From contig JBAZQK010000003.1 in the NCBI GenBank assembly GCA_041645215.1, positions 45,723 to 109,722 on the forward strand: a stretch of DNA of 64,000 nt, given 5' to 3'. Below, in pieces: positions 21,041 to 53,790 of the stretch. How positions within the stretch are numbered: position 1 is the first letter of the stretch; every line of letters begins with the position of its first letter. Under the pieces are notes generated by a model that had not been told where the DNA came from, searched no databases, and saw nothing but the letters and a program-made list of their open reading frames with translations. The position numbers were made by a program, and so were the translations under genes. The DNA is from Patescibacteria group bacterium. Lineage in GTDB: Bacteria > Patescibacteriota > Patescibacteriia > Veblenbacterales > UBA10138.

Positions 21041-21072
21041 AGAGCCTGAACACCGGCTCTACTTTTTTTTGT
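21041..21072 (+). terminator. Intrinsic terminator for the 20260-21015 gene, overlapping the 3' end of the convergent 21059-24763 gene
   Basis: A 6-bp stem hairpin (agagcc-tgaacacc-ggctct) followed by T9. Confidence 0.5.
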
Positions 21073-24000: not shown

Positions 24001-24763
24001 TTAATGTTCTGGCCGAAACCGTACGCATTAAAAACTTGCCAAATTTGGTTTTAGCCTGATGGCCTGTCCATTTTTCAAGATTTTGGTCACCCAGCCACTT
24101 ATAACCTTGTTTCACTTTTTCCCAGACTTTATGCCGCTGCTGCAGGTCTGAATATTCCTGGGTTTCTTGATAAGCCGCTACCGCTTTATCATAATCAAAA
24201 ATTTTACCTAGAACTTTTTGAGTGCCATCTGGCAGACTTTCCGTTAAGTCTTCCTGAAAACTTCCCGCGGGTTGTTTAGCCACCCACTGTTTAAATAAAT
24301 CAGGGTTAATGCCCAGCGCCAGAGTGCGCTCCAGGCGCGAATCTTCATACAAAAACCGGCGAATGCTGTTTTTATTATAGTCAGCTCGCTTGGTTTCATA
24401 AAACTTTTTAGCCACCGCGTATTCATCCCTTAAACCCGTCTTGGTCTTCTTGTCCTCCAGGGCGGCATATTTTTCCCGCGCTTGATTAAACTCAGTCAAG
24501 GACTGGCGTAGTTGATGGATTTTTTGCGTTTTTAAATCGCGTTCAATCACTTCTTTCTCCGGAGCTATGGCTGACGCCGTGCCTTGATAGCGTTCATTAT
24601 AAAATTGCTTATCCTCGGCGGTCCAGTCTTCAATTTTTTTATCTCGCAACGCTTCCAACTTCTTAATATCATCAGCACTTAAAACGCGTTTACCTTCAGG
24701 AATATTTTCCCAAGGATTAGGCGTCTTAAGATGGGGCGGTGGCGGGACATTCATATTGACCAT
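21059..24763 (-). CDS. Giant (1234 aa) protein: N-terminal coiled-coil region, a glycine-zipper TM segment, and a C-terminal domain of about 900 aa with unknown function
   Basis: Long ORF. The N-terminus is K/E-rich and heptad-like. The TM segment is FGKFLMRTVSARTLIGVGLFGAGVGAATMGAGLTSAGLLGF with GxxxG repeats. The C-terminal part is large, with no motif I can assign. It is the last gene of a tightly spaced four-gene minus-strand operon. Confidence 0.6.
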   Translation of the reverse strand: MVNMNVPPPPHLKTPNPWENIPEGKRVLSADDIKKLEALRDKKIEDWTAEDKQFYNERYQGTASAIAPEKEVIERDLKTQKIHQLRQSLTEFNQAREKYAALEDKKTKTGLRDEYAVAKKFYETKRADYNKNSIRRFLYEDSRLERTLALGINPDLFKQWVAKQPAGSFQEDLTESLPDGTQKVLGKIFDYDKAVAAYQETQEYSDLQQRHKVWEKVKQGYKWLGDQNLEKWTGHQAKTKFGKFLMRTVSARTLIGVGLFGAGVGAATMGAGLTSAGLLGFRRIFSGASSAIGVHEGTKGLSEHWAKTKGKESELKAEEIVNLSKDELRLRLQHFELSARKKHEDVSKNEAYQALKEQYKERLETEIKQGKVTDEVIKAEIEELDETFASVKAQARNKAVARATLSAAFGVAVGAGLLGKIIGKGVQEVTGSGNVGASGLTQEQLLQYGQEIDRLSAKFFGKIPNVSNWPAGQVSGLVDYLHNLEHSFGGVKASGQWGPDEWRAFMSEYQDMFAGQKVPSAEEISAHLAKDSVITTVAEGQGIETKGIQQIMDDPRKFGYAGDLQDIKAVKSFAGKLAHEAALNTQVGDKAVAGVTSGGQAYDLRLKSGAIGDKVLLEQGSDGKWHYKFGEGLAKEDLYQHVAKGSGGAGVDIPSVQPKVDVNPLLNNKWEVFSSLDGSEHSRYTMVHYDSDLPDGTEHFSNSDLRMWAGETKLGDSPFTGRLSYATLLDRQNNSVDTVRFLADDHRSVTQQLVDAHNKFAVIDKNLTVISDNLPRSGDKLPLGYQAEMARWAGVDLLSKGNLTAAQTENLSVIDKVVNGRAGYFHETDFKDFLKENYKSLSSTEAGMDYAAFKSLRNQGFANINMADVHTYANKPNSWLELVHDGKASMPGGFKADVVGGELVTNLKSPLSGEQLNAPLAKDQFSMQALSSSLNKLTGQYAQEYALYNGIKSTVGENNADYILSLKCGDATESNIIDHTSKLFGLSDGGGDKVYEYLHKTLGADYTGKSGTVGEELSRVTGTKGIASQSQVLEGSKLAGQKAGTELSQNLETVPTHKEISVNGGKLIMDYDNKGNLKTTFNGMMQGGVFTKDLQEVALADKFMEVIHQRGSNGVFIHKDPGFLSQQVQMTARVLHNDLKIHESLVKSGHLEEAKIYGEYIKHQVVLADKSYGKGIFEEAKIEAQLNANNKAGAEYLAAKNKANLLEEDDAKFQAKLRANKLIEQDKDFLNKKK

Positions 24764-30579: not shown

Positions 30580-30917
30580 AAATATGAAGCTCCTCGAGCT
30601 GATGGGACAGGAACGTGGGGTATTCCACTGTGGCGCCCGGGGTATCTTCCGCTACCCACCTTCGTCCTCCCAAGGCGGACTACGGCGGGTTATAAAGCCT
30701 AATCTCTCGTGCCCCAGTCCGCCCAAAGCCTACATGCAAAAAAACATATCTCGTCTATTATCCGTACTGCCTTTGGCCCCGACGCCGGCCGGTGGTAGGC
30801 AGAGGTCATCACCCCCAAGGTGACATCCACCCCTCAATGAACGTCGGGGTTTTAAGCGAAGCCCCGCTAAGCGGGGCGAAGGTGGATAAACATTAAGTCG
30901 GTCTTTATATTTTATGG

Positions 30918-31613
30918 CTATTTCTCATTATCCAGCGCTAACCTAAGCAAGAATATTGTTTCGGTCCTAAGTTTTGCGCGGGCCCAGTCTTTCTGACTTT
31001 CAGTCAACAAGTCGCCGAGACCATCGAGAATATGCCGATTATTCATCTTTTCCAGCAAATAAATACACTTGACTAAGACATCTCGGAAAGACATGTTTAA
31101 TCTTTTTTCCACAATCTTTTTATTGATCGGCCAATTATTTTTTGCAAAAAAATACACATCAAAAATATCACGGCTGGTTTTGCCGACTCGTTCATACATA
31201 GCCGTGAGTTTATTGGCAAACATATCTTCCTGAACCATAACCAGCATAGAAATGCCGAGCATTATTTTGAGTTCATATTGAGATCCAAAGTCTCGGCGAT
31301 TTACCTCGATTTTTATGTTTTGGGCTTTTGGATCGTAGGAGAGGACGATAATAAGGTTAAAACGTTTTATCCGCGATTCCTTTATTTCTCCATAGTTTCT
31401 CGCAATTTTTTGTATCTTTTCGAATACGTGGGTTTCTTTAGCTTCATCTAAAAGATCAAAATCAAGGTCTACTGAAATTCGATTGAGGTCATAGATCATA
31501 AATGCGGCGGTGCCGCCCTTAAACCCCAGATGGGAGGCAAGCGCAGTATCAGAATAAATATCCTTAAGGATCTGCAATTGTATTTTTTTATGTATTGAGG
31601 CATCTAACATCAT
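30918..31613 (-). CDS. AbiEii-like nucleotidyltransferase (type IV toxin-antitoxin toxin, DUF1814 family)
   Basis: The GFKGGTAAF ... RISVDLDFD motifs are characteristic of AbiEii/DUF1814 nucleotidyltransferases. Length is 231 aa. Confidence 0.65.
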   Translation of the reverse strand: MMLDASIHKKIQLQILKDIYSDTALASHLGFKGGTAAFMIYDLNRISVDLDFDLLDEAKETHVFEKIQKIARNYGEIKESRIKRFNLIIVLSYDPKAQNIKIEVNRRDFGSQYELKIMLGISMLVMVQEDMFANKLTAMYERVGKTSRDIFDVYFFAKNNWPINKKIVEKRLNMSFRDVLVKCIYLLEKMNNRHILDGLGDLLTESQKDWARAKLRTETIFLLRLALDNEK

Positions 31614-31679
31614 ATAGTTGCTTGTCCCATTAGATAATTCTTCAGTCTTTGTTTAACATAACGCTTGCCCCACGCGGCT

Positions 31680-31877
31680 TTAAGATATTTTTCTCCATGA
31701 GTGGCAGCTTGTTGATTTAGACAGGCTTCGTAATAAACCAATGCCAACGGCAAACGGTTCTTTGTGGATACCCTCCCTTCCATCGTTATGCAACTTCAAT
31801 CTATTCTTTAGATCATCGGTATAACCAGTGTATAATTTACTATCTTTTTTAATTCTAAGAACATATGTGTAGTACAT
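31680..31877 (-). pseudogene. Truncated GIY-YIG nuclease fragment (N-terminal motif only)
   Basis: YYTYVLRIKKDSKLYTGYTDDLKNRLKLHN is a GIY-YIG core motif. The ORF ends after 65 aa with no nuclease C-terminal part. Confidence 0.5.
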
Positions 31878-31883
31878 AAATAT

Positions 31884-32483
31884 CTAACGGGATGAACTCT
31901 TATAATGCTCAAAATACCTATTAACCTTCTTCACCATATTTTTATGGTGATAGATGGGTAATATTTGAAACACCCTATCCCAGTCCAATGAATCCAAGTG
32001 ATCAAAATGATAGTCCTTGCTTACGTAAATCCTGTCCAAAAAAGCCCTTTCCTTGGTAGCAATTGAATAACCGTCTTTATGCTCAATGCCGGTGGTGTTG
32101 CTTAAGACATAATCTTTCATTTTTACAAAAGAAATAGTATGTCCATCAACGGTGATGTCTCGGGTTACATAGGAAGCGACAAAAATCGTTTCGTAGTACT
32201 GAAAGTTAATTCCGGCTCGGGTTAAAACAGTTTCAAAACTGATATATGACGGAGTATATATTCGCGTCGCTAAATCAAAACGACTGTATTTTTTATCTTT
32301 AGCATACAAGCCGCGACGAACCCGAATCAACTTTCCGGATTTTACATAAGAATTTAATCGCACTCGAGCCGCGTTCTCGTTCTCACCACCCCATAACAAA
32401 GTTACATCTTTTGTTGAAAAGATGGTTTTATTGGATCTTAACAAGACCTCTAAAAATTCGCCTTTTTTGGGTTTTTTATCCAT
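31884..32483 (-). CDS. AbiEi-like transcriptional regulator/antitoxin
   Basis: About 200 aa with an N-terminal winged-helix-like region. It sits immediately upstream (in transcription order) of the AbiEii-like gene, which is the typical AbiEi/AbiEii arrangement. Confidence 0.5.
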   Translation of the reverse strand: MDKKPKKGEFLEVLLRSNKTIFSTKDVTLLWGGENENAARVRLNSYVKSGKLIRVRRGLYAKDKKYSRFDLATRIYTPSYISFETVLTRAGINFQYYETIFVASYVTRDITVDGHTISFVKMKDYVLSNTTGIEHKDGYSIATKERAFLDRIYVSKDYHFDHLDSLDWDRVFQILPIYHHKNMVKKVNRYFEHYKSSSR

Positions 32484-32999
32484 TTTTTACTGGATGTTAG
32501 GTTTAAACTAACTTCCAGTACTATTTTATACTGTAATCCAAATAAACACAAGGGTTAAGAGGTAAAAAATTTGCTCTTTATTTACCCTTGAAATCGCCAA
32601 ACCATCCTGATATAGTTAGCTAAGTGAAGCTCCACAACCTCATCCAGCCTTCGTTCGCCTTGGGAGGACTACGGCGGAGTAGGCCGGCCGTAATGTCATG
32701 GGATACGTGGGTCAACTAACCGGAACGTTTTTAAAATACAAATAAGACCCAGCTAAGTAGCTGGGTCTTATTTTATGAAACTCCCGACCGCATCCCGCTA
32801 AACGGGACGAAGGCTGGAAGCTACGGGGTATGCAGACAAAGGAGGATAAAAAATTAATCCTCTTGGCGGGCTCGATCCCGCCGCGGCGGAACGATCTTTA
32901 CCCCGTAGTGAGCTGTGCTCTACTACGGGGTTCTCCGTGACCCCGCCTAACTAGCTGGCGCTAGTATTACGGGGCAAGCCGGGAGACTTATATTCAGTG

Positions 33000-33072
33000 C
33001 GGGCTCGACCGGATTCGAACCGGCGATCTTCTCCGTGACAGGGAGACGTGTTAACCGCTACACTACGAGCCC
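33000..33072 (-). tRNA. tRNA-Asp (GUC)
   Basis: The reverse complement folds as a cloverleaf: acceptor GGGCUCG/CGAGCCC, anticodon stem-loop UCUCC-CUGUCAC-GGAGA with anticodon GUC, and T-arm GCCGGUUCGAAUCCGGU. There is no encoded CCA. Confidence 0.85.
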
Positions 33073-40739: not shown

Positions 40740-41840
40740 CTAAGGACAAGTTTCGCTAATATTACCTTTGAGAATTGAACACTGCGAAAAAATCGTATAA
40801 TCAAAAACATCAGACGACGGGGCGAACTGCGGCACGGTAATAGACAAGGCCTGACGCGTATCAGCTTGCTGACCCGTAGTTGAAATTGTGATACGGGCGG
40901 GCAAAGCATACACACTGCCGTTACCATCAGTCTCGCTGTAAGCAGTTAACTGCAAATTACAAATACCGCCGTATAAAGCTTTTAACCGCAAACGGTAATT
41001 GACATAATTCGGCTGGCCCACGTTATTGATATTAATAATGACGGCTTGACCGGGACTGGCGGCAATTTGACTGTGATTAATATAACGCCGCTGAACGTCA
41101 AAATCCGACGCCGCTCCGCCCCACGATGACCAGGATAGTTCCAACCACTCCTGTCCTTGATTAACACAGGCGGTTGCGGTTGGATCCCAACTTATTTTTA
41201 ATGATTTTGCCTTTGGACTGTCGTCCAGTGAAGCGGCGGGGTCAAACAAATCAATTTGTTTAACTTCGTCCGGTTTTAAAGTAGTTATAAGAGTTGATTG
41301 GGTTTCCTGGCTGTCGCGCCACCACTGCCCTTGACTGCTAATCAAACTGACCGGGCTGGATGAGGAAACCGTCAACTGACTGCCCTTTAACCCTTCCTGT
41401 CGCCATAAATACAAACCCTGCTCCAAACCGCTTTCGGCGGCATAATAAGCCACCACTGCCCGATCGGCCGAAGTTGTAAGGCGCAACTGGCGCATGACCA
41501 AACTGCCGACTGTCAAACTGGTAACCAAAATCGTCGCCAAAGCCAACAACGCCAATAGCAATACCATCCCCTGATTATCACCCTTCGCCCCCAATACCCT
41601 GCGGTCTCCAGGCCGCAAAGGATGAATGGCGAGGATGATGGGGCTGTAGTTTTTCCGCCAAAGGCGAATCAGCCACCCTCGGCCTGCCATTCGGCGGAGC
41701 CTCGCCTTTGGCGGGGCGTGCTGGCTGAAGCGGGACGAGGGGAGTAGGTAAAAAAGGCTACGGGTGATGAATCCTAAAATAGAGGATACCCGGTGGTCTT
41801 GCCACCGGGAGAATTCATTTTTTTCTCTTGTATAAAACAT
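40740..41840 (-). CDS. PilX-like minor pilin/pilus-associated protein. The real start is probably the internal ATG (MVLLLALLAL) near 41570.
   Basis: A hydrophobic N-terminal helix is followed by a PilX_N-like motif (AVVAYYAAESGLEQGLY). The N-terminal 90 codons of the track ORF are read through a copy of the GC-rich dispersed repeat at 41610-41765. Confidence 0.55.
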   Translation of the reverse strand: MFYTREKNEFSRWQDHRVSSILGFITRSLFYLLPSSRFSQHAPPKARLRRMAGRGWLIRLWRKNYSPIILAIHPLRPGDRRVLGAKGDNQGMVLLLALLALATILVTSLTVGSLVMRQLRLTTSADRAVVAYYAAESGLEQGLYLWRQEGLKGSQLTVSSSSPVSLISSQGQWWRDSQETQSTLITTLKPDEVKQIDLFDPAASLDDSPKAKSLKISWDPTATACVNQGQEWLELSWSSWGGAASDFDVQRRYINHSQIAASPGQAVIININNVGQPNYVNYRLRLKALYGGICNLQLTAYSETDGNGSVYALPARITISTTGQQADTRQALSITVPQFAPSSDVFDYTIFSQCSILKGNISETCP

Positions 41841-43100: not shown

Positions 43101-43694
43101 TTATTGAACGTTAATCTGCCCCGAAATAGCGTTAACTGTCACATTAATTAAATTTCCACTGCGGCTATGGCGCAACCCGACCTGCAAAGAGCCGCCCCAG
43201 CCGCCGCCGTTTAGAGAACCGTTAATGTAACGATCACCCAAGGGTGGTCGAAAACTAAAAGCCACGGCGGGCAACACCGGGGTTAAAGTATTTATAGTTA
43301 CATTGGCCGGCAAGTTGTAAGTCCAACCGGAAATGATTTCATTGGCGCTATCAAATAAACCGTTGCTGTTAAGGTCGGGAAACAAAATTAGTTGATTGGG
43401 GCTGCTTAAATCAAAATATACGCCATAGCCGCCGCTGGGAACAAACGTACTGCCGCCAATATTAACGGTCGTGCCGGCCAACGCTTGAGCCTGGGCCTGC
43501 TCTAATACCGAAGCGACCAGAAAGCCGGCTTGACGCAACTGGTCCTGCTGTGAGCCCTGCCTAAAATTAGCTATCATTATACTGGCGATAATCACAAAAA
43601 TACTAATCGCTACTAACAAATCAACGGTGGTAAAGCCGAATCGAGTTATTGGTTTAACAACTGACATAATTTTATAATCCGAGCCAAGCGCCAT
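43101..43694 (-). CDS. Type IV pilin-like protein (FimT/GspH-like)
   Basis: Prepilin-like N-terminus G|FTTVDLLVAISIFVIIASI, with Asp in place of Glu at +5. Confidence 0.6.
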   Translation of the reverse strand: MALGSDYKIMSVVKPITRFGFTTVDLLVAISIFVIIASIMIANFRQGSQQDQLRQAGFLVASVLEQAQAQALAGTTVNIGGSTFVPSGGYGVYFDLSSPNQLILFPDLNSNGLFDSANEIISGWTYNLPANVTINTLTPVLPAVAFSFRPPLGDRYINGSLNGGGWGGSLQVGLRHSRSGNLINVTVNAISGQINVQ

Positions 43695-44424
43695 ACCACT
43701 GCCAAATTAAACTGCCCCCGACAAAAACTAACCAAGTGGCAACTGCCAAAAATGTTCCAAATGGCAGTTGCGTATCCCGCCGCGCCCGTTTAAGAGCCAA
43801 CATTACCAGCGCCACGACCGCGCCTGACCAATAAGCTATTATTAAAGCCATAATAGTGTAACGCCAACCTAAGGCCACTCCCATTAACAAGCCAAACCTG
43901 ATATCCCCCGCCCCCACCCAGCGACCGCGCGACCAATAATATTGCAGTGCGAACCAGCCGGCTCCCACGGCCGCGCCGACCGCCAAGTCCAACCAGCTCC
44001 GCCCTATTAGTAAATTTAAAATTAACAGCACCACTGTACCGCTCAAAGTTAAACTGTCCGGCAATATCATATATTGCCAATCAAACACAAATAAAACTAT
44101 TAAATAACTGACCAACACCAAATAAGTCAACAGCATTAGCCATTGGCCGCCGGGAATTAGCGCCGCGCCCAGCGCAAACCAGGCGGCGGTTACCGCCTCA
44201 ACCAACGGGTACTGCCAGGAAATTGGTTGGCGGCAAAACGCGCACCGCGAGCGCAAATAAAAAAATGATACTAGTGGTATATTGTGATACCAATATAACT
44301 GCTGGCGGCAGTGCCGACAGCGCGACCGACCGGTTAGTTTTTCTCCAGCCGACAAACGCCAAATCACCACATTGAGAAAACTGCCCACTATCAAACCGAA
44401 AATCGCTAATATAAGCAATTCCAT
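43672..44424 (-). CDS. pilD: Prepilin peptidase (A24 family)
   Basis: N-terminal tetracysteine Zn motif (CRHC ... CAFC) and a polytopic peptidase-A24 core with the conserved Asp-containing GAGD motif. Confidence 0.85.
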   Translation of the reverse strand: MELLILAIFGLIVGSFLNVVIWRLSAGEKLTGRSRCRHCRQQLYWYHNIPLVSFFYLRSRCAFCRQPISWQYPLVEAVTAAWFALGAALIPGGQWLMLLTYLVLVSYLIVLFVFDWQYMILPDSLTLSGTVVLLILNLLIGRSWLDLAVGAAVGAGWFALQYYWSRGRWVGAGDIRFGLLMGVALGWRYTIMALIIAYWSGAVVALVMLALKRARRDTQLPFGTFLAVATWLVFVGGSLIWQWYGAWLGL

Positions 44425-44819
44425 AACTTTAGAATATCATTTTCAGGCGACTTGGCCAAGTTGCCGGCTGGGTTAGGATAAAACTCCACGATCTCATCCA
44501 GCCTTCGTCCGCGGCGGCGAACTACGGCGGATTTGGCCGGCGGTGGCGTCTTGCAAAACATTAATCTGACCCCCTTTTTTTATATTATACTTTTAAATTA
44601 AAGGTACCTGACCCTTTTTCAATTCGCTGTTAGTAGTTACGGGATTTATGTCCGGTGCCGCCATAGCGGCATCCCGCAAAATTAAAATTTTTTTTAATAG
44701 TAGGTGCGGTGACCGGACATAAATCCCTGAAGTGGCTATTTAGTTTTTACCTGACACCTTTTTCCCTCTGGGATAGAATGAATTAAAACATTAAGAAAAA
44801 CGGTCCTCGTGAGACTTAT

Positions 44820-45749
44820 TTATTCATTAATGCGTTCTAAAACATTAAAGCCGCTAAGAATAACATCGCAAATAAAATCTTCGAGTTGACTTTGGTCATC
44901 TTTAGTTTGAGCTTTATAAAGATAAGTATAATAAAGCTGTTTTTGCTGTTGATGAATAATCGCCGGCGCTAAATTAGCTTTCAAAAGCATAGCGTTCATA
45001 AGCAAACGTCCCACCCGACCATTCCCATCAGAGAATGGATGAATTTGTTCAAAGCGACTATGAACATTAGCTGAAATATTCACAATATCTTTTTTTGTTT
45101 TTTCTGCATCAAGAATAATTGACTTCATCAAATCTGGTATCCGTATATAATTAGCTGTTGGCAAGCTAACACCCACAATTCTAACTGCATGATTACGATA
45201 CATTCCCGCATCTCCACGAATTCCATTCATAAGAATACTATGCAATTTCAGTATTAAATTTTCGTTAATTTTCCCTTTTTTAGCTAGGTAATTAAATAAG
45301 TAATTTAGGGCGGTTTGATGATTTTTTGCTTCTAACTGTTCAACTAGACTTTTATTTGGTAGAGCTACATTTTCAAAAAGAACAGCAGCTGTATCTAGTT
45401 CAGTAAGGGTATTTCCTTCAATGCTATTGCTATGATAAGTAAGTTTTAAAATAAATTCATCGAGAATATCTTGATTATTTAAAATTTCATTAATAATACT
45501 TTTGTATTTAGATGATTTTTTCTTTAAAATCTGTTTTTTGGCTGTAAGCTTATCATCTGAAATGATTTTTTGCCCAGTAACCTCTAAAAATAAATCATTT
45601 ATAATTGATTCCTTTTTTTTATGAGGAACAGATTTTCCTGTCCACCAATTATTAAAGGCAACAAAAGAAACTCCAAACTTTTCTGCCAATTTAGTCTGAG
45701 TTAATCCAAGTCTTTTTTGAATAATTTTAAGTTTTTGCTGTGTATTCAT
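44820..45749 (-). CDS. Fic-family protein (class II, self-inhibited) with an N-terminal XRE-type HTH
   Basis: Fic motif HPFSDGNGRVGRLL, inhibitory-helix motif SNSIEGN upstream of it, and an N-terminal HTH (LGLTQTKLAEKFGVSFVAFNNW). Confidence 0.85.
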   Translation of the reverse strand: MNTQQKLKIIQKRLGLTQTKLAEKFGVSFVAFNNWWTGKSVPHKKKESIINDLFLEVTGQKIISDDKLTAKKQILKKKSSKYKSIINEILNNQDILDEFILKLTYHSNSIEGNTLTELDTAAVLFENVALPNKSLVEQLEAKNHQTALNYLFNYLAKKGKINENLILKLHSILMNGIRGDAGMYRNHAVRIVGVSLPTANYIRIPDLMKSIILDAEKTKKDIVNISANVHSRFEQIHPFSDGNGRVGRLLMNAMLLKANLAPAIIHQQQKQLYYTYLYKAQTKDDQSQLEDFICDVILSGFNVLERINE

Positions 45750-46030
45750 ATATAGATATTATCAAACTTTATAAAGTTAGTCAAAACAGTGAAAACTTTA
45801 TAAAGTTACAAAATTCAAGGACTTGCTTTAAGCTCTTTTAAGGCAAGACCTTTTTCCGACTTAAAAATATCGGATGTCCAAGCTACGGTTCTTGCGAGAT
45901 CCAACTAAAAGGCTCCTGACACCTTTTTCCTTTTTTCCTTGACATCTCTTTTTGTGCATATATTACATTTGCCGCTATAATCTGTTATAATCCACTATAT
46001 ACAGTATAGCGTTAATTTTTAATAAAACTT

Positions 46031-47095
46031 ATGGACGACATTTTCCGAAAATTTGATCATCGCATAAAAAATCCCGATCCGCATATCGTGACTCTTTTGG
46101 CTGAGATTGATGGTATTCGCGGCGAGTTCAAAGGGGGCTTAAGAATGACGCCTCAGGCCATTATTAACCTTAAGAGATCAACACTAATCACCTCTGCCGG
46201 TGCTTCGACTCGTATTGAGGGCGCAAAACTGACCGACGAGGAAGTCGAGAAGGTCATGCGCGGCCTTGCAGTCTCAAAGTTTGCTGATCGTGACTCGCAG
46301 GAAGTTCAGGGATATCTTGAAACGCTTCAGAATGTTTTTGATAGTTTCCAAACCTTGCCGCTTCGGGAGAGTGTTATCACTTCGCTTCATAATCAACTTC
46401 TTAAATACTCCCACAAAGACGATACGCATCGTGGTGGTTATAAAAAGAAAGAGAACACAGTTGGTGTACCGGGACCGGACGGCAAAGTGGCGCAAATCAT
46501 GTTCGAGACCACCCCGGCGTACCTTACGCCAAAGGAAATGCAGGAACTTGTTGAGTGGACTGATGATGCGCTCGAAAAAAACCGCTTTCATCATCTTCTA
46601 ATTATCGCAAATTTTATTGTAGAGTTTTTGAAAATTCACCCGTTTGAAGATGGTAATGGGCGTCTTTCGCGCGTCCTTTCAAATTTACTTTTACTGCGAT
46701 TTGGTTACCAGTTTGTACAGTACGTCTCGCATGAACAAATTATTGAGCGCCGCAAGGACGAATACTATATTGCTCTCCGCAAATCTCAAGAGACATTCAA
46801 GACTGATCACGATACCATCGCACCGTGGCTCAATTTCTTTCTTTCGGTAGTCAGAGAACAAGCGGCAAAGGCTCTTTCGTATCTAAAAGAAGAAAAAGTT
46901 GAGGATATGCTGTCTCCCAAGCAATACGAAGTATGGAAGTATGTTTTAAGTGTCGGAGAGGCCGCACCGGGTGAGATCGTAAAAGCAACCGGTATCGCAT
47001 TGGGTACAGTTCGTCAAGCGCTTAATAGTTTGGTTGAACTCGGAAAAGTGAAACGTATCGGGCGTGGCCGGAGTACACGGTACCTAAAAATATAA
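46031..47095 (+). CDS. Fic-family protein (class II) with a C-terminal winged-helix domain
   Basis: Fic motif HPFEDGNGRLSRVL, inhibitory motif STRIEGA, and a C-terminal wHTH-like region (PGEIVKATGIALGTVRQALNSLVELGKVKRIGRGRSTRY). Confidence 0.85.
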   Translation: MDDIFRKFDHRIKNPDPHIVTLLAEIDGIRGEFKGGLRMTPQAIINLKRSTLITSAGASTRIEGAKLTDEEVEKVMRGLAVSKFADRDSQEVQGYLETLQNVFDSFQTLPLRESVITSLHNQLLKYSHKDDTHRGGYKKKENTVGVPGPDGKVAQIMFETTPAYLTPKEMQELVEWTDDALEKNRFHHLLIIANFIVEFLKIHPFEDGNGRLSRVLSNLLLLRFGYQFVQYVSHEQIIERRKDEYYIALRKSQETFKTDHDTIAPWLNFFLSVVREQAAKALSYLKEEKVEDMLSPKQYEVWKYVLSVGEAAPGEIVKATGIALGTVRQALNSLVELGKVKRIGRGRSTRYLKI

Positions 47096-47357
47096 ATTAA
47101 TTTAGGAAATCGCTTAAAGAACGGTTCTTGCGTAATTCAATTAAAAGGTTCCTGATACCTTTTTCCTGTTCTAGGATAGAGTGAATTAAAACACTAAAAA
47201 AAATCTGCCTGTTGCGGGGAATAAAGAAAGGCTCCTGACCCCCATTTACCTCATTTACCCATTTCTGTCCCCATTTATTTCGTGAATGGAGAGTTATTTT
47301 TGTAGTTTTTCACGATTATGTTGACAAAACAGTGAAAAAAGAATATAATAGTGGTAT

Positions 47358-48233
47358 ATGACTAAAATACTTAATGTTTTCAATAAAATAAATTCTTTAC
47401 GTGAAAGATATTATAAAGCATCTACGGGAAAAGAGGCGCTTATTAAACTTATTGCTGAAACTGAAGTTGCCGAGCAAGTATATAACTCAAATGCTATAGA
47501 AAACAACACTCTTACTCTTGAAGAAACTGAAAAAATACTTCTTCAAATTGATCTTGATAGATATATCACTGAGCGAGAAATATTTGAAACAAAAAATTTA
47601 GCAAGAGTTGTATCATATATAGATAAAAAAGCCAAAGAACAAGAACTTACTCTTGATGTTATTTTATCGCTTCATAAAATGTTGATTTCAAATATACGCA
47701 ATGATGTTGCTGGAAGATTCAGAAAAGATAATGAATATGTTCGAGTAGCTAATTACATTGCACCAGCTCCAAAAGAAGTTCTAACAAGACTTGAAAAAAT
47801 GCTGACAGAATACAATGCTACAAGCCATGAAAATATTATTAAACGTATTGCGCGCTTGCACCTTACTTTTGAACACATCCATCCATTTGTTGATGGCAAC
47901 GGTCGTATCGGAAGAGTAATAAATAATTACCTGCTTATAAGAGAAGGATTTGTTCCAATAAATATAAAATTTATTGATAGAAAAAAATATTATGAAGCTT
48001 TCAAAGAATTTGATAAAAAAAACATAACTACTGTTATGGAAGAAATGGTAGGGAAAGCGCTTACTAACAGTTATTATAAAAGATTAGCATACTTGGAAGA
48101 CAAAAAAATTATTCTGCTTGTTGAGTATGCAAAAAGTAACAAGCTTTCACATTCAAATCTTATAAATAAAGCTAATCGACAGACTATTGAGGCTTTTTTA
48201 GAAAAGAACGTTTGGAAAATTGGTGTTGATTAA
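47358..48233 (+). CDS. Fic-family protein (class II, third paralog)
   Basis: Fic motif HPFVDGNGRIGRVI and inhibitory motif SNAIENN. Confidence 0.85.
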   Translation: MTKILNVFNKINSLRERYYKASTGKEALIKLIAETEVAEQVYNSNAIENNTLTLEETEKILLQIDLDRYITEREIFETKNLARVVSYIDKKAKEQELTLDVILSLHKMLISNIRNDVAGRFRKDNEYVRVANYIAPAPKEVLTRLEKMLTEYNATSHENIIKRIARLHLTFEHIHPFVDGNGRIGRVINNYLLIREGFVPINIKFIDRKKYYEAFKEFDKKNITTVMEEMVGKALTNSYYKRLAYLEDKKIILLVEYAKSNKLSHSNLINKANRQTIEAFLEKNVWKIGVD

Positions 48234-48366
48234 AAAATGAAGCCTCCACGGGCTCATCCAGCCTTCGTCCTCCTTGGGAGGAGGGTTGGGGGTTGTATTA
48301 TTTTTAGTGAATTAAAACATTAAGAAAAAGTTGCCTGTCGCGAGGAGTGTATATGTTATCACTAAT

Positions 48367-48717
48367 TTAGGGTATGGTAAGTTCAGGATTTTTAGAAATA
48401 TAATCATCTATGGCAATCTTCAATTTTGGCAACTCGTGAGTAATGATATTCCAAATAATATCTACATCAATATCAAAATAATCATGCACAAGCTTATCTC
48501 TAGTGCCAGCTATATTTTTCCACGGAATATCAGAATATGTTGTCGTAAGATCGTCAGGCAGATTTTTAGATGCTTCACCAATAACCATAACATCATAAAC
48601 AACAGCGCGTAAAAGTACATCATTATGAGACAAATCAACACAACTTACATCTTTTGTCGCTTTTTGTATTCTTTTTATGGCATCGCGTATATGCAATACT
48701 CTGATGTTAATCTTCAT
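48367..48717 (-). CDS. HepT-like (DUF86) toxin of a HepT/MNT toxin-antitoxin pair
   Basis: Rx4HxY motif (RDKLVHDYFDID). Overlaps the upstream MNT gene by 11 bp. Confidence 0.7.
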   Translation of the reverse strand: MKINIRVLHIRDAIKRIQKATKDVSCVDLSHNDVLLRAVVYDVMVIGEASKNLPDDLTTTYSDIPWKNIAGTRDKLVHDYFDIDVDIIWNIITHELPKLKIAIDDYISKNPELTIP

Positions 48718-49039
48718 AAATAGGCTTTAAATCGTTAAACACTGAACTTTTAATATAACGTCCAATGTTTTTTTCGGTGGCTAAATCTACCTTACGGCCA
48801 ACTTTTTCTTCAAGTTCGCGCTCAACACCAATAAGATCAAATAAAGAAAAGGCGCTATTTTGCTTCAAACGAATCATAATATCAATGTCGCTTTCAGATT
48901 TTTCTTCACCTCGCGCGAACGACCCAAAAACACCCGCATAAGAAATCGGATATTTCTTAAATACCGGTTCAATTTTCTTTTTTATCTCATTGAGTCTTTT
49001 ATCGCTTACCATATCATTTATTATAATACAATACAACAA
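48707..49039 (-). CDS. MNT-type nucleotidyltransferase (antitoxin partner of HepT)
   Basis: GSx(n)DxD motif GVFGSFARGEEKSESDIDIMI. Confidence 0.75.
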   Translation of the reverse strand: MLYCIIINDMVSDKRLNEIKKKIEPVFKKYPISYAGVFGSFARGEEKSESDIDIMIRLKQNSAFSLFDLIGVERELEEKVGRKVDLATEKNIGRYIKSSVFNDLKPIYED

Positions 49040-49083
49040 AAAAACTAGTAATAGTCCCTACAGAGCAGGACTTAGATCACATA

Positions 49084-49347
49084 TCACTTCGCTCGCTCTT
49101 TATCAAGAATATCGTGTGTGCCGACACGGCGAAGAACGATCAAAGTTTCCCAATATTGAAAGGTGAAACGATACGCTCGCGTTATACGCGCATACCAAAT
49201 CGAAGTGCCAGGCAATTTCTTCACATGAAGCGAAGAGTGACGAGGGTTTACAATTAAAAATTTAAGCACCTTGTCGAGCGCTCTCCGGACCTCAATCGGC
49301 AGTATCTGATAATCCTTCTTGAACGATTCAGTGAAGAAAAACTGCAT
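49084..49347 (-). CDS. RelE/ParE-family toxin
   Basis: 87-aa protein with a RelE/ParE-like C-terminus (YARITRAYRFTFQYWETLIVLRRVGTHDILDKE). Its start overlaps the stop of the upstream small ORF by 1 nt. Confidence 0.65.
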   Translation of the reverse strand: MQFFFTESFKKDYQILPIEVRRALDKVLKFLIVNPRHSSLHVKKLPGTSIWYARITRAYRFTFQYWETLIVLRRVGTHDILDKERAK

Positions 49348-49637
49348 TATCTTTTTCCCTTACCGCGAAGCGCGGCGATAAGCGTTTTGGCATCTCTGAA
49401 TGGGCCGTAGACTTTGCGCGCCTTTATGGCGACATCAGCTTCGGCTTCTTTTTGCTGCCACTCTGGTGTCCAAAACCAATTGTCTTCGGCGCGAACTTTT
49501 ACTGTTCTCTTCCAATGGGAAAACGCCTCATATTCCTCACGGGGAATAACCACAAGATCTCCTTTTTGAGCAAGTTCTTTAGGAATAGTAACTGCATTCA
49601 TAGTGACACTATACCATATCCAAAAATCAAAAGTCAA
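49347..49637 (-). CDS. Putative antitoxin (AbrB/MazE-like swapped-hairpin N-terminus). Probable start at MNAVTIPK.
   Basis: VTIPKELAQKGDLVVIPREEYEAF resembles SpoVT/AbrB-type antitoxin DNA-binding domains. It is translationally coupled to the RelE-like gene. Confidence 0.45.
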   Translation of the reverse strand: MTFDFWIWYSVTMNAVTIPKELAQKGDLVVIPREEYEAFSHWKRTVKVRAEDNWFWTPEWQQKEAEADVAIKARKVYGPFRDAKTLIAALRGKGKR

Positions 49638-49852
49638 ACCTCGTTTACAAAATTATTATATTTTGTCTACTATCTTTGCATATGTGGAGTTAGTGGACAA
49701 GGCCCCCTGACAAGAGGGTTAGGGATTGTATTATTTTTAGTGAATTAAAACATTAAGAAAAATCGCCTGGTACGGGAAAGAAAGAAAGAGTACCTGACCC
49801 CCTTTCTATGTTAACTTGTAGCAAGGACAGGACAGTCCTTGCTACACTTTAT

Positions 49853-52800
49853 CTATCGTTGATAGTTAGATCCTACCAACTCAATTCTAAATATAACCGC
49901 AGTGTCATTATTCGATACCGACCATTGTAGTTTACCCTCGATAGCAGTCGGTAAATTTGCGGTAAGATTCGTAGCCGCCGAAAGTGCTCCACCGTTTTTC
50001 CTCCAATAATAATCTACACTTGTTGTCCCGTTTACCACAAAAATTAAATCAAGGAACTCAGAGCCAGCTAGCGTTGTAAGAGATGCCGACGCATTTTCTG
50101 TCGTTCCATCTGCTTGAGTTGCATAAAGATTAACTACCCCGCCACTTTTGATAATCTTGAAGCCAATATGAGCATCTGTATAAGTATGTCCACTACCATT
50201 AACCGTTGGTTGTCCAATTCCGAAGAAAGTCGATGCCGCTCCATTCGAAGCATCAATTGCGGCGGCATTAACAAGAACTGAATATATTGGACTACCTGCG
50301 AATAATTTTGCGTTTGTAGTCTGAAAATTAACTCGTATACTTTGAGAACTTGTAATCGTAGCACCGGTGTTGACTGAAACTCCATATGAGCCAAATGATG
50401 TAGTACCACTGCCAACACTGACAAGCTCAAATCGTGCAGAAGTCGAAAACTCCGTTGAAAACGCTGTTTTTGATACAGGAACTTGGCTCACAAAATTCGT
50501 CCCATCAGAAGTAAGCACATTGCCGGAGGTGCCGGCGGTGGCGGGATAGGTGGCGGTGGACCAAGTCGGGGCGGCTGAAGCGCCGGAACGCAAAATTTGT
50601 CCGGCTGTAGCTGTGCCCGATAATATAGCGCCGGCTGAAGCGGTGGAATATAAAATTCCGCCATTAGAAGCGGTTAAGTTTGCGCCCGTGCCACCTTGAG
50701 CTAAGGTTATTAAAGCATTAGATGTTAAGATAGTAGCAGCAGCATCAGGGAAAGTGTAAACTCTGGCTACTGTCGGGCCTGCGGCAGTAAAGAACGCTAT
50801 ACCTGTTCCACCATTAGCAGTTGGTAATATTCCAGTTACCTTTGCCGCAAGGTCAATAGTTCCAGCCGCAATCATTGCATTGGTAACTTTTAAAGCTCCG
50901 ATAGCGGTGGTTATAGCACCGGTTCCTGTTCCTGAAACATCTCCAGATAATGTTATAGTTTGGTCGCCTGTATTTGTGCCAGAGTTTGTGCCTGTAATGT
51001 CAGAAGTGAATGCTAGTGTTCCAGCGGCATCTTTTAAGGTGTAAATTCTATCGGCTGTATTGGTATTTACAAAATATCCATCAAAAGTATTGGCAACATT
51101 TCTTAATTTCATGGTTGTATTTAAGAAAGTTTTGATACCAGAGTTTGTTTGGGCAGAAGCTAATACCATATCGCCTACACCTTTGGCATTAAGTTGAGTT
51201 TGGATAGCTGAAGTTACACCTTTGACATAGGAAAGTTCGGTAAGAGATGGGTAAGTAGCTGTTGCGAGAGAACCAAGAGTATTTGCCCCAGACCAATAAG
51301 TCAGTTCGTTTATAGTTCCTGTTCCAACTGATGTTAAATAAGTTGAATTATCAAATGAAATTACTGTTCCATTGCCTTTTAAGAAACCCGTTCCATTGGT
51401 CGTAGAAGCGGTTGTGATGTTGTCTAAAGTTAATGCCCTGTCGGGGAGTGTATAAATTCTATCAGCAGTATTTGTATTTACAAAATAACCATCAAAAGTA
51501 TTGGCAACATTTCTTAATTTCATTGTCGTATTTAAGAAAGTTTTGATACCAGAGTTTGTTTGGGCAGATGCAAGAACCATATCACCTACACCTTTAGCGT
51601 TTATTTGAGTTTGTATCGCTGAAGTTACTCCCGCTACATAATTTAATTCTGTGCCTGTAGCAGTCATTGAAATTGCTCCAATGGTGAATGGTGTAGGTAT
51701 AATGACTGTGCCGGTAAAAGTAGGAGAAGCCAAAGGTGCGTAAGCTGTGGTATCAATAGATAATGTTCCAATTCCGCCACCTGTTTTTACAAAACCATTA
51801 GTCGTAAGGTTAGAAAGTGCAGTAATGTTTTGCGAAGTATTGACTGTAATGGTATTTACTGAACGAGTAAGACCAGTTGAAAAAGTTAAAGGCACTTCAT
51901 AAGCACTTGAAGCGGTATAAGCAGCTGTGCCTAATGTTCCACCAGTTCCGATGTTTAGAGTTGATGCATCTGTTCCCGCCAGAGTGAGAGTATTGGAAAT
52001 GGTTAATGTTTTGCCAGCCGTGACTGCCAGTCCGGTGACGGTGGCGGCATTGCCAGTGGTAGAGCCAGACGAACCAGTTACATTGCCAGTCACATTACCG
52101 GTGAGTGGACCAGAAAAGCCGGTAGCGGTTAAAAGTCCAGTGGCAGGATTGAATGACAGTTTGGTAGTAGAAACTTTAGCCGCGTAATTACCGCCAGCCG
52201 TGGCTGTCCACAAAGGATACATGGTGGCGGCGGTAGTGATATCGTCAGCATTATTCACCGGTACAGTTATAGCGCCCGAACCATCAAAATTAACCCCATT
52301 GATGGCTCTGGTGGTGGTTAAAGTCGCCGCGCTGCCAGTCGTGTTCTGGTTTAAGGTTGGGAAATCTCCAGCCACGGCGATTGTCAAAGCGCCGGTAGTA
52401 GTGGTTGATTTTAAAATACCAGTAGCGAGCGCGGAAGTTCCAGCTGAATAATCCGTTCCAGCCGTAGCGGCCGAAAAGGCCGATGCACCATTACCCTTGA
52501 TTAGTCCAGTCAGGGTGGACACGCCTGTGCCGCCATAAGCAACCCCCACCACATTACCTTGCCAAGTAGAGCCGGTGGACAGGGTTTTATTGAGCAAGGT
52601 TTCGGTACCAGCTAAAGTAGCCAAGGTGCCAGAGGTGGGTAAAATCAGGCTGGTGTTAGCCGTAGTCGTAAAGAATAAGGTATTAGCCGCAGTGGCCAAA
52701 GGCACTAGGCCGCTGTTATCCTGCAGGGTGATAGTTCGGCTGGCTGTGGGGTCGGTTACGCCCAAAGTGGTTTTGTTGGTATCAATGGTGGTGCCGTCAA

Positions 52801-52951
52801 AGGTCAGGGTAAGGTTGCCTTGGGAATTAATATTAAAGCTGGAAAAAGTCAATTCTGCCAAGGCATACTGGGAAGTAATAGCCAAAGACAAGATTATAGC
52901 TAAACCAACGGCGCTTTGGCGCCAATATCTAAACAGTTTAAACTTGGTCAT
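49853..52951 (-). CDS. Large (1032 aa) Thr/Gly/Ala-rich repetitive surface protein with a signal peptide and an internal near-identical duplication
   Basis: N-terminal signal/anchor (LAIILSLAITSQYALA) and T/G/A/S/N-rich repeats. A segment of about 55 aa (KGVGDMVLASAQTNSGIKTFLNTTMKLRNVANTFDGYFVNTNTADRIYTL) occurs twice. The corresponding DNA at about 51080-51230 and 51490-51640 is nearly identical. It resembles a phage tail-fibre or adhesin. Confidence 0.6.
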   Translation of the reverse strand: MTKFKLFRYWRQSAVGLAIILSLAITSQYALAELTFSSFNINSQGNLTLTFDGTTIDTNKTTLGVTDPTASRTITLQDNSGLVPLATAANTLFFTTTANTSLILPTSGTLATLAGTETLLNKTLSTGSTWQGNVVGVAYGGTGVSTLTGLIKGNGASAFSAATAGTDYSAGTSALATGILKSTTTTGALTIAVAGDFPTLNQNTTGSAATLTTTRAINGVNFDGSGAITVPVNNADDITTAATMYPLWTATAGGNYAAKVSTTKLSFNPATGLLTATGFSGPLTGNVTGNVTGSSGSTTGNAATVTGLAVTAGKTLTISNTLTLAGTDASTLNIGTGGTLGTAAYTASSAYEVPLTFSTGLTRSVNTITVNTSQNITALSNLTTNGFVKTGGGIGTLSIDTTAYAPLASPTFTGTVIIPTPFTIGAISMTATGTELNYVAGVTSAIQTQINAKGVGDMVLASAQTNSGIKTFLNTTMKLRNVANTFDGYFVNTNTADRIYTLPDRALTLDNITTASTTNGTGFLKGNGTVISFDNSTYLTSVGTGTINELTYWSGANTLGSLATATYPSLTELSYVKGVTSAIQTQLNAKGVGDMVLASAQTNSGIKTFLNTTMKLRNVANTFDGYFVNTNTADRIYTLKDAAGTLAFTSDITGTNSGTNTGDQTITLSGDVSGTGTGAITTAIGALKVTNAMIAAGTIDLAAKVTGILPTANGGTGIAFFTAAGPTVARVYTFPDAAATILTSNALITLAQGGTGANLTASNGGILYSTASAGAILSGTATAGQILRSGASAAPTWSTATYPATAGTSGNVLTSDGTNFVSQVPVSKTAFSTEFSTSARFELVSVGSGTTSFGSYGVSVNTGATITSSQSIRVNFQTTNAKLFAGSPIYSVLVNAAAIDASNGAASTFFGIGQPTVNGSGHTYTDAHIGFKIIKSGGVVNLYATQADGTTENASASLTTLAGSEFLDLIFVVNGTTSVDYYWRKNGGALSAATNLTANLPTAIEGKLQWSVSNNDTAVIFRIELVGSNYQR

Positions 52952-53334
52952 ATAATCAACAAGTTAATGATTAATAACTAAAGTCTATATCAAAGAGTAG
53001 CATAATTACCTTAATAAATTCAAGCACCTTGACCCGCCAACGGCGGTGGCTTGTCCCGCTTCAGCCAGCACGCCCCGCCGATTCGGCGGGGTATTTTGGC
53101 GAAAGGTGATAAACGCGTAAGTCCTATATAAGCAAAGAACAAGCCCTTTTTAGGAGGACTTGTTCTCTAAATTAAATCAGTATAGGACCTACGCACTTCG
53201 TCATCCTGAACTCGATTCAGGATCTCTATCAAGGACTAATGTTAGCCAAGGTTAGATTCTGATCCGCCAGTGGCGGACAGAATGACGGCTGCAAAAATAC
53301 CACATTCTGTGTCAAGTGCGTAAATCCTACAGTA

Positions 53335-53790
53335 TTATTGAATTCCGCTCGGCGTGGCAGTTCGCGCGCCAGCGGCTAGACCACCGGTAGCGCCTTCCAG
53401 AGTAAAAGTAATTGAATAGGATGTACCATCGGCCGAGGCGTAAGTATAAGCGGCTCCGCCCGGTGACGGGTTAGAAGGCACTCTCCCCATATAAACCGTT
53501 CCAGCGGCCGTGGCGTTAAAGCCATTGGTGGCGCTTAAGGTCAAATGGTTAGCGTCGCCCAAAGTTCCGGCTTGAGCATTGGCAGCAATAGTGCCGGATG
53601 GATACAGATTCTGATCGCCATAATAAAGCTCCAAAGCGGTTTGTATCTGCTTAACATCACTCACCCGCTTAGCATCGCGCGACTTCAGACGAGCGCTGTT
53701 AAGAGCCACTACCGCCAAGGTTGACAAAATGGCAATAATAGCGATTACAACCAAGAGTTCAACTAAAGTGAAACCTTTTTGATTTGTCAT
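53335..53790 (-). CDS. Type IV major pilin
   Basis: Canonical class III signal and N-terminal helix: MTNQKG|FTLVELLVVIAIIAILSTLAVVAL. Confidence 0.9.
   Translation of the reverse strand: MTNQKGFTLVELLVVIAIIAILSTLAVVALNSARLKSRDAKRVSDVKQIQTALELYYGDQNLYPSGTIAANAQAGTLGDANHLTLSATNGFNATAAGTVYMGRVPSNPSPGGAAYTYASADGTSYSITFTLEGATGGLAAGARTATPSGIQ

Follow-up and report, generated by a model that had tools for sequence, protein, structure and literature searches.

Background

Defence and toxin-antitoxin islands are variable, AT-rich segments between core genes in which unrelated modules, such as SoFic-type Fic proteins, HEPN/MNT pairs and RelE-family toxins, stand side by side. The subject of this report is a locus of this kind, a seven-gene region (44425-49852) in a 64-kb stretch of DNA from a Patescibacteria group bacterium (hereafter the window, whose first letter is position 1). 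It holds three Fic genes (Fic1, Fic2 and Fic3), a HepT/MNT pair, and a RelE/YoeB-fold toxin with a small partner. While its content resembles that of described islands, it differs from them in lying inside a type IV pilus locus of Patescibacteria, in having its modules joined by one shared composite repeat (hereafter the linker), and in that the window showed no mobile-element genes. Patescibacteria, whose genomes are very small, rely on type IV pili to make contact with their hosts and probably to take up DNA. To our knowledge, little has been established about how defence genes are acquired and turned over in these bacteria.

The linker invites comparison with several other described systems. 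Integron arrays, whether clusters of attC sites lacking integron-integrases (CALINs) or sedentary chromosomal integrons with toxin-antitoxin cassettes, share with the locus their units of about 1 kb, an element of 80-130 nucleotides (nt) in one orientation, diverse cargo and strain-variable content. In contrast to such arrays, the locus has no R''/R' boxes, no imperfect dyad and no integrase among the window open reading frames (ORFs) scanned; at least Fic2, Fic3 and the RelE operon have promoter-like boxes of their own, and some module boundaries lack the repeat. The XerC/XerD (pdif) modules of Acinetobacter plasmids are likewise small and often encode toxin-antitoxin pairs; short conserved sites delimit them, and they are reshuffled from replicon to replicon. 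However, pdif sites are 11-6-11 dyads in alternating orientation, whereas the linker copies all point the same way and have no such dyad in common. Repetitive extragenic palindromes (REP), bacterial interspersed mosaic elements (BIME) and bidirectional intrinsic terminators also consist of short hairpins with A and T runs, located just downstream of genes and present in many copies. In the linker, by comparison, the stems are weak and AT-rich, the loop rather than the stem is conserved, and the copies are restricted to the island and to one strand. The genes of the locus belong to well-known families, and their arrangement, a variable defence/toxin island, is also a known one, while the linker is an undescribed, lineage-specific, non-attC element at points of strain exchange.

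Results and discussion

A strain-variable island in a pilus locus

The island lies between pilD (43672-44424, minus strand), a core gene encoding a prepilin peptidase (Pfam A24_N_bact and Peptidase_A24) whose closest named relatives belong to Candidatus Kerfeldbacteria, and the gene of a 1032-residue (1032-aa) protein (49853-52951, minus strand), which in turn adjoins the major pilin gene (53335-53790, minus strand; Pfam N_methyl). The island is AT-rich and compositionally set apart from its flanks, with a GC content of 0.37 overall and 0.25-0.35 in places against 0.47-0.52 on either side. GC content at third codon positions (GC3) ranges from 0.18 to 0.49 across the modules and is about 0.5 in the flanking genes. 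The organism, an uncultured one, is a member of Candidatus Kerfeldbacteria. An earlier note, made from the letters of the window, had described the region as a toxin-antitoxin island splitting the pilus locus. Comparison with relative L031, whose PilD is 56% identical, bears out the splitting, as there a 61%-identical major pilin gene ends only 187 nt before pilD. Because the L031 pilin gene stands directly upstream of pilD, the 1032-aa gene and the island are both extra relative to L031, and the inserted block is accordingly larger than had been proposed. A further relative, L029, has a TMEM260-like gene ahead of pilD.

Strains sharing 98.5% identity with the window part from it precisely at 44491-44494, the edge of the island. 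In one assembly the contig carrying pilD and the contig carrying the island overlap by exactly 141 nt, which is the k-mer size, and the assembly graph therefore branches at the island edge. The island is thus a strain-variable accessory insertion in the pilus locus.

The replacement of modules is illustrated by strain L026, which is 98.6% identical to the window through Fic1 and Fic2 as far as position 47211, just past a linker core and TCTGCCTG. Beyond this point a different RelE-family pair replaces Fic3, HepT/MNT and the RelE module of the window, with repeat copies at both joints. The replacement pair is followed by another linker copy and then by several 'empty' hairpin motifs (L026 positions 2831-2975); a similar run of hairpin motifs with short unique spacers occurs in the window at 44565-44764. 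Copies of the L026 pair in other genomes lack this linker, and their DNA is 80-83% identical to that of L026 over a stretch that begins 17 nt before the antitoxin start codon and goes no further than the toxin stop codon. Since the likeness in DNA stops at the limits of the pair while the proteins are 75-91% identical elsewhere, we conclude that the pair was dropped into a pre-existing local scaffold. The locus therefore shows module-by-module turnover between near-identical strains.

The protein comparison concerns the toxin of the L026 pair (2123-2625; homologues P0148-P0267), whose 75-91% identity is to proteins labelled at NCBI with the names of several candidate phyla, namely Nealsonbacteria, Wildermuthbacteria, Wolfebacteria and Parcubacteria. 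Some versions of this toxin occur on up to 70 contigs. The pair looks like one that has spread very recently within Patescibacteria.

A short promoter (TTGACTTTTnnTTTTTGA..) is common to L026 and to the array of a second genome (L044-L053), and could be a source of one-sided homology. In the array of the second genome one cassette occurs in only a subset of the contigs, with perfect 41-nt direct repeats of this promoter on either side. This array (e.g. L045, 1700-4800) runs on a single strand and contains five or more small gene pairs, a ParE pair and a GIY-YIG gene among them. It has a recurrent motif of its own, AAAATAGGGACGTGCACATTTTT, which stands just after stop codons and is analogous in design to the CCTGAC hairpin of the linker described below.

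Modular architecture of the linkers

Alignment of the copies demonstrates that the linker is modular. A 50-nt box ending in the hairpin AAAAGG-nnCCTGACn-CCTTTT comes first and is followed by either of two alternative boxes, both of which resemble -35/-10 promoter elements. The core then follows, succeeded by GCCTGnnnCGGGG (the GCCTG..CGGGG box), an A-rich stretch and a second CCTGAC hairpin. The AT-rich 23-nt core, GTGAATTAAAACATTAAGAAAAA, occurs in the window at 44778, 47181, 48307 and 49740, always on the plus strand and with 0-2 mismatches; there is no copy elsewhere in the window and none is expected by chance. The CCTGAC hairpin motif, CCTGACMCCYTTT, has seven copies where 0.28 would be expected in the window, and all seven lie within the island on the plus strand. 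The recurring element reported in the earlier note is consequently real and has four cores, its coordinates being corrected to those given here. The further claim that every module is bounded by the element fails, since the Fic1/Fic2 spacer contains the hairpin part only and no core, and the MNT/RelE spacer (49040-49083) contains no repeat whatsoever. Among the three sequence pieces that had been named for the element, ctcatccagccttcgtcc is not specific to the island, as it also occurs at 32639 and 32805 and thus belongs to a wider GC-rich REP-like family.

The individual copies, all on the plus strand, differ in completeness. Two CCTGAC hairpin motifs with no gene between them occupy 44565-44619, a degenerate one at 44565 and one with an AAAGG/CCTTT stem at 44600-44619. 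Linker copy A (44743-44814) consists of a degenerate hairpin motif, the promoter-like box CTGACA-17-TAGAAT, the core (44778-44800) and a truncated GCCTG box, and ends 19 nt from the stop codon of Fic1. Fic2 is flanked by 50-nt direct repeats (45885-45934 and 47121-47170; family D18) that are 86% identical, the left one being the 50-nt box made up of ACGGTTCTTGCGAGATCCAA and a CCTGAC hairpin. The right one forms the beginning of the full-length linker copy C (47121-47252), in which the 50-nt box with its hairpin is followed by the core (47181-47203), GCCTGTTGCGGGG, an A-rich stretch and a CCTGAC motif (47226-47246). The -35/-10-like box of this copy, CTGATA-17-TAGAGT, is weaker (8/12, read by eye) and was not listed by the promoter scan. 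Linker copy D (48244-48346) comprises a REP-like hairpin, the G-rich box GGGTTGGGGGTTGTATTATTTTTAG, the core (48307-48329) and GCCTGTCGCGAGG, and ends 20 nt from the stop codon of HepT. Linker copy E (49663-49812), again of full length, contains a palindrome (49663-49700), CCCTGACAAG, the G-rich box, the core (49740-49762), GCCTGGTACGGG, an A-rich stretch and a CCTGAC motif (49786-49805); its counterpart in L026 is 79% identical. In the three truncated copies 15-37 nt separate the core from the adjacent stop codon, and in the other copies the gap is far longer.

According to the promoter scan, promoter-like boxes precede the core in three of the four window copies, and -35/-10-like boxes also lie upstream of Fic2, Fic3 and the RelE operon. 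The CCTGAC hairpin is predicted to form the same stem-loop in eight copies, with weak folding energies of -2.7 to -11.7 kcal/mol. In an alignment of 13 copies, 79% of the cells are paired, a value to be read against the 71% that remain paired after a one-column slide in this context of A and T runs. The loop is constant, and one pair of the stem shows covariation (AU, GC, CG, UA). In several cases the hairpin stands 12-94 nt past a stop codon with A and T runs on either side, which makes a role as terminator or insulator plausible.

A separate small repeat was noted between linker copy C and the Fic3 promoter (47238-47285), where four units of 9-11 nt end in CCCATTT or CTCATTT (gaCCCCCATTTacCTCATTTaCCCATTTctgtCCCCATTT). 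The second hairpin of a related locus, L043, has a stem type, AAATGG/CCATTT, that matches these units.

Gene modules of the island

All three Fic proteins match Pfam Fic above its cut-off (E-values 1e-16 to 5e-23). Fic1 is encoded at 44820-45749 on the minus strand, Fic2 at 46031-47095 on the plus strand, and Fic3 at 47358-48233 on the plus strand behind a consensus promoter of its own (47321-47349). The active-site motif HPFx[DE]GNGR lies at residue 237 in Fic1, 203 in Fic2 and 175 in Fic3. The inhibitory motif [ST]xxxE[GN] is found in the same chain, 130-144 residues N-terminal to the active site, as SNSIEG at residue 107 (Fic1), STRIEG at residue 59 (Fic2) and SNAIEN at residue 44 (Fic3). 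The presence of both motifs in this order assigns the three proteins to class II, in agreement with the earlier note, and the appended domains are also those that had been described. Fic1 carries an N-terminal XRE-type helix-turn-helix (HTH; NCBIfam RstR, 2e-7, with matches to PHROG repressors), Fic2 carries a C-terminal winged helix (DIP2311-like_C, 3.4e-7), and no extra domain was recognised in Fic3. The PADLOC SoFic profile matches Fic2 at 1.9e-43 over positions 26-349 of 361, nearly its full length and including the winged helix. Fic1 (4.5e-31) and Fic3 (2.1e-29) match this profile as well. All three proteins also match PDC-S04, which fits Fic1 and Fic3 better than SoFic does.

These results suggest that Fic1-3 are self-inhibited SoFic-type AMP-transferases that have diverged from one another. 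Like described SoFic and class II Fic proteins, they combine HPFx[DE]GNGR with an N-terminal [ST]xxxE[GN], and Fic2 provides the near full-length profile match. They differ from them in that three divergent copies stand side by side, one with an additional N-terminal XRE HTH. Pairwise identity among the three is only 28-30% and their GC3 values are 0.20 (Fic1), 0.44 (Fic2) and 0.18 (Fic3); the proviso that the paralogs might be conserved core genes of the lineage can thus be set aside.

The HepT gene (48367-48717, minus strand; Pfam HepT-like, 2e-25) and the MNT gene (48707-49039, minus strand; Pfam NTP_transf_2 and Polbeta, 1e-14) overlap by 11 nt, MNT preceding HepT. Their translations contain RDKLVH (Rx4-6H) and GSFARGE..DIDI, respectively, and MNT also matches PADLOC PDC-S09. 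The motifs and gene order are those of a HEPN-MNT, type VII toxin-antitoxin pair and confirm the HepT/MNT assignment made before.

Recognition of the remaining module depended on structure. The 87-aa toxin (49084-49347, minus strand) and its 84-aa partner (49347-49601, minus strand), whose genes overlap start to stop, form one operon behind the promoter TTGACT-18-TATAGT (49637-49608, minus strand; promoter scan). No Pfam, NCBIfam, PADLOC or PDB sequence match was obtained for the toxin, and no family hit for the partner. A structure model of the toxin, built on a 27-sequence alignment, reached a predicted local distance difference test score (pLDDT) of 92. Foldseek compared this model with YoeB, YafQ, RelE and RelK at template modelling (TM) scores of 0.72-0.79 and E-values down to 5.6e-6. 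The modelled fold, a beta sheet against two N-terminal helices, points to a RelE-type protein, and the RelE-like toxin with a small upstream partner proposed in the earlier note accordingly holds at the level of fold. Two homologues of the toxin carry the Joint Genome Institute (JGI) names RelE/StbE and YafQ, and the pairing of the toxin with a small upstream partner recurs in homologous loci. Other homologues at 63-65% identity (L040-L042) stand singly among housekeeping genes, without the repeat.

Class II Fic proteins are self-inhibited single proteins and not toxin-antitoxin pairs. Because the Fic proteins are of this kind and fit SoFic and PDC-S04, and because MNT fits PDC-S09, 'defence/toxin island' is a better label than 'toxin-antitoxin island', which suits the HepT/MNT and RelE modules but not the Fic genes. 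The low identity of the Fic proteins and the spread of GC3 across the modules further indicate that the modules were acquired separately, so that the island is made up of five independently acquired modules: the three Fic genes, HepT/MNT, and the RelE/YoeB-fold toxin with its antitoxin. Given this spread and the divergence of the Fic proteins, the near identity of the cores indicates that the linker belongs to the locus or lineage and not to the cargo.

Occurrence of the linker elsewhere

An exact-pattern scan for the core in species-representative genomes returned five single hits, none with the flanking parts of the linker, which we regard as chance. The same scan of metagenome contigs returned 16 hits, and the flanks are shared by only two of them, L023 and L026. 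Viral contigs, when scanned for the core and for the hairpin, gave chance hits only. The earlier concern that the repeat might surround housekeeping genes as well is not borne out, as there is no copy outside the island in the 64 kb and only two other related loci came from the public scans.

In the groundwater contig L023, an XRE-HTH gene has the hairpin motif on one side and the core, a GCTTG box and the hairpin on the other, and the repeat locus adjoins a proton pyrophosphatase gene. Locus L043 encodes an 82%-identical homologue of the window toxin within a RelE/HicAB/DUF433 array, the HicAB and DUF433 labels being our reading of the ORF translations without a family search. This array keeps the G-rich box and the hairpin without the core. 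Its hairpin stems are altered in a compensatory manner (AACGGT/ACCGTT and AAATGG/CCATTT) while the loop is unchanged. As judged from these comparisons, the element is confined to a narrow lineage, and it lies beside small accessory genes in every case seen.

Candidate identities of the linker

A number of established elements were considered as identities for the linker and rejected. Integron attC sites would require an R'' (RYYYAAC)/R' (GTTRRRY) pair 40-160 nt apart, and no such pair is present on either strand of six spacers; an inverted-repeat search of all linker copies for the attC dyad gave the short local hairpin only. No recombinase or IntI domain was detected among the 29 window ORFs scanned. 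A Xer/dif 11-6-11 site is contradicted by the direct orientation of all copies and by an inner dyad of just 5 nt (TTTTA/TAAAA) in two of the four. The inverted-repeat search found neither terminal inverted repeats nor a target-site duplication, and the linker is consequently not a miniature inverted-repeat transposable element (MITE) of the usual form. Rfam yielded four chance-level hits (E >= 1.2), none on the core. The stretch from core to hairpin folds no better than its shuffles on either strand (z from -0.5 to +1.3), and the consensus fold of the linker is weak (-3.9 kcal/mol). A tRNA or tmRNA attachment site is excluded by the position of the sole tRNA of the window, tRNA-Asp at 32999, far from the island. 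Regarding a phage or plasmid origin, there was no phage match, and plasmids gave just two short matches to Fic genes. CCTGAC is not a DNA-uptake sequence, since the remaining 58 kb of the window do not contain the motif. Finally, a small ORF over the core is excluded, as the three plus-strand frames all stop within the core and the frames are not conserved between copies.

Proposed role of the linkers in module exchange

The reading that we favour, with a probability of about 0.5, is that of a variable defence/toxin island whose linkers serve both as terminator- and promoter-like punctuation and as joints of recombinational module exchange. As intergenic punctuation, the linkers would insulate neighbouring modules transcriptionally; being repeated, they would in addition serve as the joints for loss, gain and swapping of modules. 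Such swaps may proceed by homologous recombination of imported DNA, or by one-sided homology followed by illegitimate joining, and would make an integron-type integrase unnecessary. Turnover between repeated regulatory linkers and imported DNA is favoured because of the swap in L026, the promoter shared between L026 and the second genome, the cassette flanked by 41-nt repeats and the 50-nt repeats around Fic2. Should the linker be punctuation and nothing more, the locus would neatly exemplify how recombination shuffles a defence island.

Several observations weigh against this reading. The gene identities, the repeat counts, the differences between strains and the position of the breakpoints at the linkers are observed, whereas the terminator and promoter roles and the route of recombination are inferred. 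The hairpins are weak (-11.7 kcal/mol at best) and were not listed by the terminator scan; L023 and one of the L026 copies have a poor promoter-like box or none. Both the 23-nt core and the hairpin loop are conserved more strictly than passive punctuation would need, and a terminator or promoter role does not predict the single orientation that the copies keep whatever the direction of the neighbouring genes. Runs of empty hairpin motifs and a covarying stem with a conserved loop are poorly explained by this reading. The 3' joint of the L026 cassette shows no flanking homology with donor-type copies, and plain homologous recombination therefore cannot explain that acquisition. The sample is also small and too thin to show a new mechanism: it comprises about 7 cores and about 16 hairpin motifs drawn from 4 loci, with no complete genome among the sources.

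The single orientation, the invariant core, the conserved loop with its covarying stem and the empty hairpin runs are the reasons for keeping a site-specific explanation under consideration. This would be a dedicated, non-integron cassette system in which a recombinase encoded elsewhere recognises the CCTGAC-loop hairpin, the core or both, and inserts and excises cassettes in one orientation. Such a system would account for copies that all lie on one strand independently of gene direction, for repeats at module boundaries, including the L026 replacement right after the core and GCCTG box, and for the empty hairpin runs at 44565-44764 of the window and 2831-2975 of L026. Recognition of structure plus loop would likewise give a covarying stem and a conserved loop. 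Nearly invariant cores beside very diverse cargo, and an unrelated HTH cassette bounded by the same motifs in another context (L023), are in line with it as well. Despite these points, we consider it unlikely, as no recombinase was found among the window ORFs scanned, attC R''/R' boxes and dyad symmetry are lacking, the joints fall at no single fixed nucleotide (15-37 nt from core to stop in some copies and much more in others), two module boundaries have no core, and the few loci bear on this explanation too. In an extended form, the recombinase of this non-integron platform might use single-stranded DNA arriving through the neighbouring pilus and capture defence or toxin cassettes in fixed orientation between pilin and pilD, which we regard as less likely still. 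A linker that is a recombination site would, if true, amount to a new cassette system.

It is quite improbable that the linker is a selfish MITE- or REP-like miniature element that colonises the AT-rich spacers of the island and takes no part in module turnover. Several other intergenic repeat families do occur in the genome, one of them in frame within an isoleucyl-tRNA synthetase (IleRS) gene, and REP-like hairpins have been inserted into linker copy D and the second L026 copy. Against this, the linker lacks terminal inverted repeats and target duplications, its copies are mosaics rather than discrete units and stay within the island in the 64 kb, their strict single orientation is unexpected for such an element, and the strain breakpoints coincide with the repeats. 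We are similarly doubtful that the core is the 5' end of a small plus-strand RNA, which would run from the promoter-like box to the second hairpin and, where this hairpin is missing, would continue as a regulatory antisense transcript into the 3' end of a toxin gene. The -35/-10-like boxes are at the right distance in most copies. Moreover, the second hairpin with its T-run is present in exactly the four copies that do not stand directly before a toxin 3' end (window C and E, L026_2 and L023) and absent from the three that do (window A and D, L026_1). However, the Rfam and folding results given above argue against a structured RNA, and the promoter box is not conserved in L023. Punctuation combined with recombinational exchange remains our preferred account of the linkers.

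Other features of the window

The left edge of the island is marked by a GC-rich REP-like repeat (CTCCAC..CTCATCCAGCCTTCGTCC..ACTACGGCGG; 44484-44553, plus strand; families D13 and D15), which is not limited to the island and has further copies at 30674, 32630 and 48244. The pilD-Fic1 spacer also contains, between two CCTGAC motifs, a nested inverted repeat with perfect 16-nt arms and inner GC hairpins (44641-44727), for which no Rfam match above noise was obtained.

The 1032-aa protein encoded beyond the right edge has a secreted appearance, being Thr/Gly-rich and repeat-containing with a signal-like N-terminus. It is strain-variable, with patchy 70-94% identity in L009 and L026, and gave no family, PHROG or PDB match. 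Its gene contains an internal repeat of 191 nt (51039-51229 and 51450-51640). Placed between pilin and island, it may encode a variable surface or pilus-associated protein.

Outside the pilus locus, an AbiEii toxin and AbiEi antitoxin pair (30918-32483) stands beside the tRNA-Asp gene (32999-33072). The pair is flanked by a CCAGCCTTCGTCC..GGACTACGGCGG REP-like repeat (30654-30711, 32630-32700 and 32805-32822), to whose family the island copies of ctcatccagccttcgtcc also belong. In a UvrD-type helicase (28108-30579), residues 468-620 form an inserted RNase_T (DnaQ-like) exonuclease domain, and two very large ORFs (21059-24763, 1234 aa; 25196-27997, 933 aa) have no Pfam match.

The IleRS ORF (7079-10318, minus strand) contains two copies of a GC-rich REP-like element of about 108 nt with AAAGTCAAAA repeats at its ends (8491-8598 and 9515-9622). 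The copies are 94% identical and leave the reading frame intact, each adding about 36 residues, and they are read in different frames. Further, intergenic copies of this element lie at 41654-41729, 1252-1275 and 53060-53082. In its in-frame position within a gene, the element resembles the Rickettsia palindromic elements.

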